From Ascidiella aspersa (taxonomy: Eukaryota), in the NCBI GenBank assembly GCA_963924565.1, contig OZ004609.1, positions 29,760,001 to 29,824,000 of the forward strand: a stretch of 64,000 nucleotides of DNA. The letters are read 5' to 3'. Positions within the stretch are counted from its first letter, which is position 1. Each line of letters begins with the position of its first letter. The notes below the pieces were generated by a model. The model was given only the letters and a program-made list of their open reading frames with translations. It ran no database searches and was not told the origin of the DNA. A program made the translations under genes and the position numbers. Below are positions 28,201 to 34,200 of this stretch, piece after piece.

Positions 28201-31200
28201 GTCTCTGCATCCCGCCTTGTGTAATTTGCGCAGGGCGCTGGTCTACTGTAAGCCGTGCCACGACGACCTGGTCAACCCTGAGCTGATCAAGTCGTGCGAC
28301 TGTAAGCGCAAGCGGGACTCGGCAAGTAAGTATTCTTTGCGCGACACCTGGCGGCGTCATTTGTTATGTGCGTGAGTGTGTTTGTGCGCGTTTTGGTGCC
28401 CGATTCAATTTGACAATTTTACTTGATTGTTGATTTAGCATAATGTAAAAAAATCATGAGCAATTTGCCTGACCGGTGCAACGGAAATCGTGGTGGACGA
28501 ACTGAGTCAAACTCATTCATTTTTTTATTTATTTCCAAAGTGTGATTTCGTTAAACTGATTTCTGAATGAAACCGTCTTTCCAGTTAAAGGAATATAACG
28601 TCGTTGTAAAAACAAATTAGGAAAAATTTAACAGTATGGGAAGTCGAATTCGTTATTCGGCCGTAATTTGTCCAGAATTAGCCAAAAAATCTAGCAAAAC
28701 GACATTATATGGGAAACATTTATATTTACCAGTCATTATTGACCTTTTAAACATTTTTTTTTCATGTGACAAAAACTTGCTTATTTCAATGCTAAAACTT
28801 GTTGCAAAATCTTCCCAACATTTCCGCTGCAACGGTCAAGGTTAGCGTTTGGTTTTGGGCCCAATAATGTAAAGGTCGTCCATTGATTTGGCAGCATGAA
28901 GCTACATAGCCGTCATTGCACCAGAATTTCGATTGATGCATTTGTTTTGTTTAATTTTTTTACATAATTGCGCTGCAAATTCACTTTTGTATAACTGTAT
29001 ACATAAGATTTTTGTTATTCCTTACGCTCTTTTCATGTTATTTGTAGTTTATATAAATAGTGTAATGGATAACTGCACCGTAGAGTGTCGTCCTGTAACG
29101 TAGTAGTATAAACTTCAATGTTATAGTGTCCATGCTGCCTGCTCATAAATCAATATTTACAATAACAAAATTAAATCCCAACTAAATGAAAAATCACATC
29201 TATCTGTGATAGAGAATTAGTGTTTCAATCCACCGTTTGCTACCATTATTCGTTCTGTAATACTTATTGCCAAAAGTTAGCCCTTAACAGCAGTGTTTCT
29301 GATCTCAAAATATATAGCATTAGCATTAATAAGTTTGAATTTACTTAAAAATTAGCCATGTATTTGTATTGCGTCCGCAATTTGTTCAGATTCTGGAAAA
29401 ATCTTGCTGAGAACCATAATCTCAATAAATCTAACCATGTAAAACTTCTGCAATCGGCAAATCAACGAAATCACACGGAGACCCAATTTTGGGTCACCAC
29501 CCTTCGGTTGAGAAACACTGATTTACAACAAAACCAAGTCCCAAACGGTTAACCTTCTAGGACACGTTAGCTTTCCTGAAATAGATTGGGAACAATCCCT
29601 GTCCCTCACGAGCTTTAAGCCTTCCCGGCGGCCCACTTCAAACTCGTTCCATGTGTTTGTGTGTGTTCCTGTGCGTTTTGCCCGTCACCGTTATCCTGTG
29701 AATGTTGCATGTTGCAGGAAAGCGAAGTCTCCTTCGGCTGCTGGGCCTTACCGCCAAGCCAAACAACGGTGAGTCGTTCTTCTCGCGCATTTACCCTCCC
29801 CCTTACCCCCTCAACAGCCCCCTGTTGACCAAGGGGTTAGGTAACGACCGGTGTAGTCGGTGCACACAGTTTTGGACCCGATTGTTCGGCCTAGGGATCG
29901 AAAATTCTCAAAACTGTTGGCTTTCGATTTCAACAAAACTGTTGGCTTTCGATTTCAACAAAACTGTTGGCTTTCGATTTCAACAAAACTGTTGGCTTTC
30001 GATTTCAACAAAACTGTTGGCTTTCGATTTCAACAAAACTGTTGGCTTTCGATTTCAACAAAACTGTTGGTTTTCGATTTAGCCTATGTAAATTGACAAT
30101 GGTAATTGCTCTTTCGTTTGGAAGATTTTTCAACGACGTCAAGGCACAAAATTGACAACTAATCGGCCAAAGTTGTAAAGAATAACGATTCTCCAACCTA
30201 TACCACTTTCTGTTGGGTAAAAATGTACAATCGGGTCTAAAACTTGAACCGAATTACCCTTAAAATCTAATCGCCATGTAGCTTGCATTTATGTTTTTCA
30301 TGTTTTATTTTGTCTCTGTTTATAAATAGTCACCAGAATTTGCTTGTCCAACGTGCATGCCGATCGTTCGTGTTTTTTCTCGTAGTTGGTGGACTTATAT
30401 AGGCATTAGGCAAAGTTTTGGTACTTTCAAAAATGAAAGAACACCGAAGGCTATATCTAACCAAACAGTAACCAAAACATGTGTAAACGATAGAGTATAT
30501 GTAGAGTTTGAATATAACTTATTTTCTTTCGGGATTGTTTAGTCCTAATGTGTGCTTCGTTAAAAAGTGAGATTTGATTTTACATGCCTGACAATCCCAA
30601 TAACTGTAATGCTTTCCAAAGATATTGTGCCAACTCGTTTTACGAGTGTTTAATTTTCTATTGACTCGCAGTGCGTAACAACTCGAACTCGAGTCGCTTG
30701 CCGCTGTGGCCGCGCAAGAAGTCGAGTACAGGTAAGCAACTGCCGCCACACGTGTAGGTATGCCGTTACGTCATTGCAACTCGCTTCAAATAACAACTCG
30801 CGCGCCTTCATCGACTAACACGCCATTGCTTCGCTCACAACCACTTATGTAACGCAACAGCAAATGATTATTTTGAAAAAATGAACTATTTAAAATGGGA
30901 GGGTTAAACGGGTAAAATTTATTTTCCAATTTCGATTTTTATATAAAAATGACGTTTCCTCATCAAACGCAAGGCAATTTTTTGTCAACAAAATCTAAAG
31001 AAAGGGGAATTCTATTTAGTTTTCAACCATATTTTTGGTATAAACACTGAGACGCGTAAAATTATGGTTTTATGCGTGCAACAATAAGCTTGAGAATCAT
31101 ATTTTACCACGTTTGCTAACTTGTGTACGCCGCAACTTACCGGAGTTGCTTCTTTGCTCAAAACAGACTGCTTTGTAAAAATCACGCGGCCGTAACAAAA

Positions 31201-34200
31201 CTGAGCCTTACCCAATTTACTTGAAACTTTATAAGTTCAGGGGGACTATAAAAATATAAAAAACAGCTCCTCTGGTAATTGATTATTATTATCATTATGC
31301 CTGATAGTAACACGTTATATAAAGGGAAACTACGGTTGACACTTTACTTCTTTTGGCATTTGTAAACCCCTGTCAGTGCAAAGTTAGGTTATTGGGTGGA
31401 AACTGAGTATTGGGTGGAACCATGCAAAACAAAATCTAAATTTTAAAACTTACGCATGAATGCTGTACAACTACTTTTTTCACAACTCTAACAAATGCAT
31501 AAAACTGTGGCTCCTCTAATACCGTTAACACTAATAATATGGTTAAAGAACCAACCGCAACTTAGGAAACAAAGTTCAGTGTTTTTTTTACCAATTTTAC
31601 CCTTTTCTACCGAAATTAGATCGCATACTGAGAACCGCAAAGATGCAACAGTAAGGTTATCCGCGGCACACAGGGACAACCTTGTTTTCCTTATCCTACC
31701 AGCCAGTGGCGCGCCAACAGGCTTAGGCGAAAAAAACCTCGACGGAGAAATAAAATGCAACCTCTGCCGCCCACTTGTGTAGATTCGACGCCGCACGTGA
31801 TGGTCTCGTCGAGCGAGAAATCCTATTTGATCCAGACGAGCCAGGCGCACGAAAAGTGCCGTCCGCTTTGCTCTGTGCCGCCCATGCGCAGCACCGACCA
31901 GCGCATTTGTGAGTGGCAAGAAGTGCGCCCAAAGTACGCCGTTTCCCCGTTCGCTTTACTTTGCCACGACAACTATAGGGATGTCATGATGATATGTGAT
32001 CGGAGCCGATAATCCCGGGAGTGGTCCGGGCTATAACGTCACTGGGCCCCCCAGCGCGAACTTACACTATGGGGGGGGGGCATTTTATCATTTTCCTAGC
32101 ACAAAAAATTGTAAAATATAAGAATTGCCAAGACAAAAAAGATGCTTAATTCAGTATCAACATACAAGTAGCATATTATATGAAAGGTGTTTGAAATGGG
32201 ATTCTTAAATAACCACTCTTTGTAAGACCAAAAATAATTAACAGAATAAAAAATGACTATGTGTTTAGTGTCGGTACTCAAAAATTACTTTTAAACGTTT
32301 TAATTTCATCTATTCTGCTTGTTTGAGCAAATTAATGACGTCATTCGGTATTGGCTCGGAACGTAGTACTATTTGTTCATAATACGGGTGTCGGTATCGA
32401 ATCATAGCCGAGCTTTTGACATCCTTGGTCGGTGGTCCAGTGTAAAGTGAACGCGGGAACGACTGGCTTGTGGCGCAGATAAAATGTCGTGCGCGTCCCT
32501 CCGTTTGCCATGTGTCCGTTTGTCTGTCTGTTTGTCTGTGTGTCTGTACACGTGTGCCTGGTCGCGTCCTTTCCAGTGTTGTAAACAAGTCGTTTTGAAA
32601 TGACTCGTACCAGTCAAGTCGTCTGTAAAATAACTCAAGCCTTTTTGAATAAATAACAAGTTTGTTGAATCATAATTGGAGCACGTCAAATTCAAAGTCA
32701 AGTCCTTGCCATTTGTTTTGTTCACCAATCAAAAGTATTGCTCATTGTCAAACGAGTTTCCCTTATTTAATGAAATATTTCACTTTGATGTTAATGACTT
32801 GACGTGCTATACGACAATGACTAGAACTGGGACTTTAATTCGATTGACTAAACAAAGTCATTATTGACATAAGTTAAGTCAAAGGCAATTCTTATTATTG
32901 GAACCATCTCCAAGTCAAATCACTAATTTCACAAAACAATTTCAATCATTTGACACAATTTCAATCATTTGACTAAATGACTAAAGTCCAAGTCAAGTCC
33001 TTTGTCCAAAAGATTTAAGTCAGGTCAAGTCATTTTTTCCAAAACGACCTGTCGAGAAAAGTCGTTTGAAAATAGTGAGTTAAGCACACTTAATTCAAGC
33101 CAAGTCATTACAACACTTCCACCAAGCATTATTTTCCGGGAAGACTAGGAAAACGAACTCCTAACAAAGCAGGGAAAACCTTTGCCGGCCTCGCAGTAAT
33201 AATATGGTCCCTATATGAGCGCGTGTTATTCCAACATGTGATTTTGCCACCGCGTTCTTCATCGACCTGTTTGTGACGCGCGTGAATGAATTATCGACAT
33301 CGGCTTTGCTATGATTTATAACGAAACCTTGGCTTGGCGCGTTCCCTGTAAAACACTTTGAATAACAAGGATTAGGAACTCCGGACGGTTCAGAGGTGCA
33401 TATGGCAACGTGAATTAGATCGTTAGGTTGTTGTTTTTTGGTTGTAAGCGCTCAGAGTAGATCATACACCTCTAAATGGTTAACGCTAGTTTTGCTTTAG
33501 GGTGGTATGGTTTCAAAACCAATTAGCGATTAAGTACTTTTCAATGAGGAAACCAGGTTCCTATATTTGGACAAAGTTCCCACATTTTACACTCTTCTGA
33601 TCTTAGATCGTTCTGCAGTGATGTCATTTGTTTAGGTCTTGAACTGGTCAATCTGTTGAAATTTTTTTAAAAGGTTTTTACACCTGGACTTTTCAAATGT
33701 TGGTTTTTTAATTAATATTCAACCGGTGGTGTGTGTCGTTAATAATTTTTTTTAAGTCAATTACTTGTCCTCACAAGCCAATCACTTTTCCATTAAAGCG
33801 CTTGCTCAAAGAACACTGGGTTTCAGATTGGCCAACTTGATTAACATTTGCGAATAAAGGGCGACGTCAATCAGCGCCGACGGGCGGGAAAAGGTTACTT
33901 TTTGACCTTAAATATAAAACCTGTAGCAAGTAAACAAAGAACTTTTCAAAATTTTTCTATATGTTTTTATGCTACAGAAAAAGGTCAGTTTTGCCAAAAA
34001 AGTGTCATTTTTTAGGAGTGTATTTTTCATTTTAAACAAGTGAATGTTACACAAACAGGCATGGGCAGATACGAATCCAAAACAGTACAAGTACCCTGGA
34101 ATGTCATTTTAAGAGCGCTATAGAGCTTAATCTGTATATGAGCCAACCTTTTGTTCATCATTCAACCAAGACCCTTTTACAGTACTTTGTAGTCTTCAGT

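Follow-up and report, generated by a model that had tools for sequence, protein, structure and literature searches.

Results

An ascidian BK channel gene with probable cassette exons before RCK2

We analysed a window of 64,000 nucleotides (nt) from the ascidian Ascidiella aspersa (assembly GCA_963924565.1, contig OZ004609.1, positions 29,760,001 to 29,824,000), which carries on its + strand a Slo1/KCNMA1 gene for a BK channel. A 24-exon model spanning 1106-47942 yields 1025 codons with 0 stops, the first exon of the gene being outside this model. The S1-S6 pore, RCK1, a CxxCH segment, RCK2 and the calcium bowl were found in a single open frame, which identifies the gene as Slo1/KCNMA1, and its product is 89.8% identical to the BK protein of Phallusia mammillata. 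The RCK2 exon matched human Slo1 with an E value of 1e-32 and Slo3 with one of 3e-19, and its nine top homologues are all ascidian. This ascidian Slo1/KCNMA1 gene is single-copy.

Three short exons, here called c1, c2 and c3, lie in the 7.8-kb intron that runs from heme-segment exon B, which ends in phase 1, to the next obligatory exon. They are very probably protein-coding cassette exons, common to other ascidians. The exons of this region are as follows.

25385..25471, + strand: constitutive exon before the heme exons (end of RCK1), phase 2-2; junction 21014>25385 in 3 RNA reads
26430..26506, + strand: heme-segment exon A, 77 nt, phase 2-1, CxxCH; alternative to B, with orthologues in Ciona intestinalis X3/X8 and Ciona savignyi (0/2000 shuffles)
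28234..28325, + strand: heme-segment exon B, 92 nt, phase 2-1, CKPCH; matches human Slo1 residues 609-635
29718..29768, + strand: cassette c1, 51 nt (17 codons), phase 1-1, donor gtgagt; basic cluster and leucine-rich core, net charge +4, Ser at exon position 4
30672..30731, + strand: cassette c2, 60 nt (20 codons), phase 1-1, donor gtaagc
31783..31908, + strand: cassette c3, 126 nt (42 codons), phase 1-1, donor gtgagt, weak splice sites
36154..36277, + strand: obligatory exon that comes next in the linker, 124 nt, phase 1-2; corresponds in position to the vertebrate exon after site 2
37049..37205, + strand: constitutive exon into RCK2, phase 2-0, from the gene model

All three cassettes are bounded by AG and GT, have lengths divisible by three and are free of stops, as cassette exons should be. 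Their GC content is 0.58-0.60 (windows for c1 and c3 offset by 1 nt), compared with 0.33-0.47 per kb across most of the window. The coordinates, lengths, symmetric phase, open frame and GC-richness given in the original prediction for this stretch were all verified, and each of the 16 combinations of exon A or B with the three cassettes is in frame and open. We then scored 298 stop-free symmetric phase-1 AG..GT stretches of 9-240 nt from the intron with a splice matrix trained on 22 other exons of the gene, whose own training scores are in-sample. c1 ranked first (17.7 bits) and c2 second (16.3 bits), and the next candidate reached 13.0. c3 ranked 33rd, with an acceptor of 0.0 bits and a donor of 4.3 bits (training acceptors 4.3-16.0, donors 3.1-12.0); its codon score of 20.1 was among the highest despite these sites. 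Strong donors had been claimed for all three exons; this needs correction for c3, the splice sites of which are weak. A Pfam search with four exon peptides returned no family. The RCK2 exon and the c1, c2 and c3 regions each gave 1 match in the genome, a single match being no proof of rarity.

Orthologous isoform models include and skip the cassettes

The isoforms compared were annotation models of Ciona intestinalis (XP_078494251-263), Clavelina lepadiformis (XP_076799536-540), Styela clava and Phallusia mammillata; RefSeq models rest on RNA-seq. Inserts were taken from isoform differences in Ciona and Clavelina, and exon boundaries in Styela and Phallusia were set by alignment. The linker models of C. 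savignyi looked unreliable and were excluded from the cassette sets, only its exon A being used. Among the 12 RefSeq isoforms of C. intestinalis (15 of 19 cluster members listed), exon B occurs with no cassette in two, with c1 in one, with c2 in one and with c1 and c2 in six, and exon A occurs with c1 in one and with c1 and c2 in another. The seven Clavelina models carry none (two), c1 (two), c1 and c2 (one) or all three cassettes (two). A c1-like together with a c3-like insert is present in 3/3 Styela models, and the sole Phallusia protein carries c1. Both inclusion and skipping are found in these models for c1 and c2 of Ciona and for c1, c2 and c3 of Clavelina, so that the exons are neither never included nor always included together in the two species.

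The orthologue inserts were scanned against all three frames of the whole intron, with 300 shuffles each. Five of eight matched the predicted exon above chance, namely c1 of Phallusia (0/300 shuffles), Ciona (0/300) and Clavelina (6/300), and c3 of Clavelina (0/300) and Styela (1/300). Ciona c2 landed on c2, although not above chance (97/300; 15/2000 shuffles in the pairwise comparison), and Styela c1 and Clavelina c2 missed their exons. The lengths of Ciona c1 and c2 (17 and 20 amino acids, aa) are identical to those in A. aspersa. The check proposed originally, conservation in related genomes, supports c1 and c3 above shuffles and c2 weakly. The orthologues share c1, c2, c3, exon A and both C-terminal tails with A. 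aspersa, and inclusion and skipping are already annotated in them. All of A, B, c1, c2 and c3 are recognisable in the one A. aspersa gene, whereas the Ciona models are without c3, those of Clavelina without A and those of Styela without a c2-like insert. A wider search for tunicate linkers (shorter proteins, 50 hits) gave no tunicate cassette, the named hits all being vertebrate.

Linked inclusion and candidate regulatory motifs

We found that c3 occurs only alongside c1 (5/5 models with c3), and exon A likewise only alongside c1 (2/2 in C. intestinalis). The four orthologues together show 6/8 cassette states, never c3 alone and never c2+c3. One candidate regulatory element lies directly before c1:

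29706..29711, + strand: TGCATG, 12 nt before c1

Further copies of TGCATG, which we take to be an Rbfox-type element, are located at 26331 (before A) and 28167 (before B). The motif occurs within 100 nt upstream of three of the five alternative exons (A, B and c1), compared with 0/23 constitutive ones (Fisher p 0.003), and of the nine copies that it has in the first 50 kb, six lie in the alternative region (21%), where 1.9 are expected (binomial p 0.004). The 3' splice regions of A and c1 are UG-rich, with 6 TGTG words upstream of each and at most 2 upstream of constitutive exons; such UG-repeat elements are presumably targets of CELF-family factors. As A and c1 share these UG-rich regions and c1 is present in the two Ciona isoforms that have exon A, the two exons may be co-regulated. 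Rbfox-type and UG-repeat-binding proteins would control the splicing, with A and c1 co-included and c3 a minor exon that follows c1.

Taken together, these results indicate that c1-c3 are probably spliced in or left out under regulation and with partial linkage. From the flexible linker between RCK1 and RCK2 they would adjust channel gating in the manner of the site-2 inserts of vertebrates. Skipping of the cassettes would be expected in A. aspersa as well. Several observations weigh against this reading. The orthologue isoforms are annotation models, not reads; conservation of c2 is poor (p 0.71 for that of Clavelina), a c2-like insert is found in 0/3 Styela models, and c3 in 0/12 listed C. 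intestinalis RefSeq isoforms. In RNA of A. aspersa, for which about 6% of one run (X4) was used (7.8 million records), no cassette junction reached 3 reads, at a shallow depth that is also zero over the constitutive exon 37049-37205. The numbers behind the motif tests are small, and the count covered five motifs. An amphipathic helix in c1 was not above shuffles (p 0.29-1.0), and the residue at c1 position 4, a Ser or Thr in 3/5 species, is Ala in Clavelina, with Ser/Thr one place later in Styela.

The cassettes occupy the positional equivalent of vertebrate site 2

The insert point immediately follows the CxxCH exon and precedes the exon toward RCK2, as BK site 2 does. Isoform differences of vertebrates map to the equivalent junction (vertebrate intron phases being inferred from junction residue changes, not from DNA), and in PDB 8z3s/9jo3 the heme segment stays at 609-634 while RCK2 is shifted by 58 residues. 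The junction had been named as the splice site of the vertebrate stress axis-regulated exon (STREX), and in position it does correspond to site 2 of vertebrates. According to the available text of PMC3840924 and PMC3393747, mammalian site 2 carries no insert, IYF, STREX, both, or an exon of 28-29 aa. Vertebrate KCNMA1, as far as PMC3840924 describes it in that text, resembles the ascidian gene in using symmetric cassettes in combination at the same junction in the RCK1-RCK2 linker. Fish site-2 cassettes comprise LIY, STREX and an 11-aa exon, and 7/8 combinations of the three were found among 96 fish and lamprey proteins containing the junction (of 110 hits). A three-cassette array at site 2 is therefore the chordate norm and not special; fish and mammals have one.

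The ascidian site 2 is preceded by the duplicated heme-segment exons A and B, both of which keep CxxCH, whereas no alternative of this type occurs in the vertebrate linkers compared. Inclusion of A and B together shifts the frame and leads to an early stop, as does the omission of both, so that the A/B switch originally proposed is enforced by the reading frame. The cassettes themselves also differ from STREX. With 17, 20 and 42 aa they have no S-acylated di-cysteine and no significant similarity to it, whereas vertebrate STREX is cysteine-rich and has about 58-61 aa. CC occurs nowhere in c1-c3, and a Cys is present in c1 of 1/5 species. An assignment of c1-c3 as STREX was rejected, as the di-cysteine is missing and the length too short.

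Independent or common origin of the inserts

We consider it probable that tunicates gained the cassettes separately from the vertebrate inserts, through convergent splicing at a domain boundary. Local alignment, the intron scan and boundary-anchored scoring gave no significant similarity of the inserts to STREX, the 11-aa exon or e22-like inserts. When seven vertebrate inserts were scanned against the intron, 0/7 found c1-c3, and the two sets of inserts also differ in length and cysteine content. To go by its title, Fodor and Aldrich 2009 reportedly argues for convergence at the domain boundaries of BK. Linker splicing extends to nematodes too: in the available text of PMC8841521, which cites Johnson 2011 and Glauser 2011, coordinated splicing of RCK1 and of the linker between it and RCK2 alters the channel properties of Caenorhabditis elegans slo-1. 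This resembles the ascidian case in location and coordination, with different sequences. The linker of Drosophila slowpoke is spliced as well, at its E/G sites. Against an independent origin stands the limited power of the comparison. The obligatory exon 36154-36277 likewise failed to align with the vertebrate exon at the equivalent position (p 0.91), and the similarity test is therefore powerless at the ascidian-vertebrate distance, although the heme exon and the exon after the obligatory one did align (p < 0.001). No amphioxus sequence that could serve as an outgroup was among the 10 looked up of 150 representative proteins. The independent evolution claimed originally is no more than likely.

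Alternatively, c1 (perhaps with c3) could be a diverged, split descendant of an ancestral exon shared with STREX, with site-2 splicing older than the vertebrates, which we consider unlikely. The same intron and the same symmetric phase speak for it, as do the 5' ends of c1 and STREX, both x-K-x-S-hydrophobic-hydrophobic (5'-boundary-anchored, nominal p 0.028-0.034, 2 of 64 tests), and the group alignment of c3 with STREX (nominal p 0.048, 1 of 56 tests). Lamprey STREX is already shorter (43 aa), and the unalignable obligatory exon indicates that divergence alone can erase homology. However, none of these nominal p values survives correction, and the group alignment of c1 with STREX gave p 0.78. 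The anchored scores of c1 were just as good with other vertebrate exons, namely the 11-aa exon (p 0.005) and the obligatory one (p 0.023-0.045). The failure of all seven vertebrate inserts to find c1-c3 and the missing di-cysteine also count against a common origin.

RNA from A. aspersa and the status of the exons

The RNA reads are sense-stranded and largely intronic, intronic bins being as deep as exonic ones, and 21014>25385 is the only splice joint with at least 3 reads. It seems improbable to us that A. aspersa has ceased to include at least one of the exons, c3 being the likeliest, or that c1-c3 are near-constitutive there. Loss of c3 would agree with its acceptor, the weakest in the gene, and with the zero RNA depth in its bins, and near-constitutive use with the Styela models, all 3 of which include their inserts. 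But the blank at c3 is uninformative, because the constitutive exon 37049-37205 likewise has zero depth; c3 has kept its frame and its codon bias and is homologous to inserts from two other ascidian orders, and skipping is annotated in Ciona and Clavelina. That c1-c3 are chance AG..GT stretches or repeat-derived sequence, as the 298 candidates of the intron and a tandem repeat adjoining c1 might suggest, is very improbable given the top splice ranks, the orthologue matches and the single genome match per exon region, and is largely refuted for c1 and c3.

The deepest non-repeat sense RNA of the mapped stretch lies at 28353-29514, in the intron after exon B. Here 5 molecules start at 29182 and 5 end at 28806, and an ATTAAA is located at 29170-29175. 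This depth probably reflects copies of one fragment or pre-mRNA; if it marked intronic polyadenylation instead, the resulting channel would be truncated ahead of RCK2.

Isoform number and other features of the window

The gene also has two alternative terminal exons and a further candidate cassette.

24113..24133, + strand: candidate 21-nt cassette, phase 2-2, at site 1 (SRKR-equivalent), with the best splice score (15.4) in its intron
48325..48686 (end approximate), + strand: terminal exon 1, 119 full codons, with counterparts in Phallusia, Clavelina and Ciona models
49371..49717 (end approximate), + strand: terminal exon 2, 114 full codons, C-terminal KYDVIVA, with an identical ending in Clavelina and Ciona

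The two tails claimed originally were thus recovered, at 48325 and 49371. We take the hydrophobic C-terminus of tail 2 to resemble a PDZ ligand; a shorter form of this tail is also used in Ciona models. Site-1 inserts of 5-13 aa, unrelated-looking, are present in the Ciona, Clavelina and Styela models, and the 3 reads of junction 21014>25385 skip the candidate at 24113-24133. The total of 32 isoforms calculated from the A/B switch, the three cassettes and the two tails is an arithmetic ceiling only, as it omits the site-1 insert and ignores the linkage of c3 and of A to c1.

A tandem array with a 25-bp unit (6.9 copies, 99% matches) was observed at 29909-30080, 140 nt past c1. High-copy interspersed intronic repeats lie at 32573-33060, 36304-36452 and 38690-38830, where the summed contig depth is 1,900-69,000 compared with about 60-100 elsewhere (runs X1 and X2). 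The species is strongly polymorphic, with a 39-nt insertion at 28986-28988 in runs X2 and X3 and many other intronic differences. Downstream of the channel gene, a GC-rich stretch at 60145-60830 (0.57 in 60001-61000) is possibly an exon of a neighbouring gene.

Possible function of the inserts

The basic kinase-like sites and the CxxxC predicted in the inserts are present, as RKRS (its first R from the split codon, with A or B), RKKSS and CRPLC. The importance of two of them is unsupported by conservation: RKKSS of c2 was found in A. aspersa only among the three species compared, being absent from Ciona and Clavelina c2, and CxxxC of c3 in 1/3 species, being absent from Clavelina and Styela c3. 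The net charge of c1 is +4 or +5 in 5/5 species, with a leucine-rich core, and the first 20 residues of STREX have a charge of +4. In the available text of PMC4122160, STREX acts via a polybasic stretch, S636 (Ser4) and an S-acylated di-cysteine; the polybasic stretch with Ser4/S636 is described there, and in that of PMC3840924, as required. By analogy we tentatively propose that c1 might act like the front half of STREX, its basic and hydrophobic patch binding the membrane or the gating ring and being released by phosphorylation of the position-4 serine, without a palmitoyl anchor. It is doubtful, but conceivable, that c1 is a proto-STREX from the common ancestor of tunicates and vertebrates. 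The basic patch and position-4 switch would then be older than the cysteine/palmitoyl module, and co-splicing of c1 with A via Rbfox-type and UG elements would give a cell-type-specific BK channel.

The architecture itself is already known, and the orthologous exons are already in public annotation. The literature searched, mostly outside subscription journals, yielded no paper about splicing of BK in ascidians, and the available text of PMC6901604 added nothing on site 2. The present results add tunicates, the vertebrates' sister group, to the known range of the splicing hotspot at BK site 2. As Ciona is tractable, whether STREX-type regulation is old or convergent would be directly testable.

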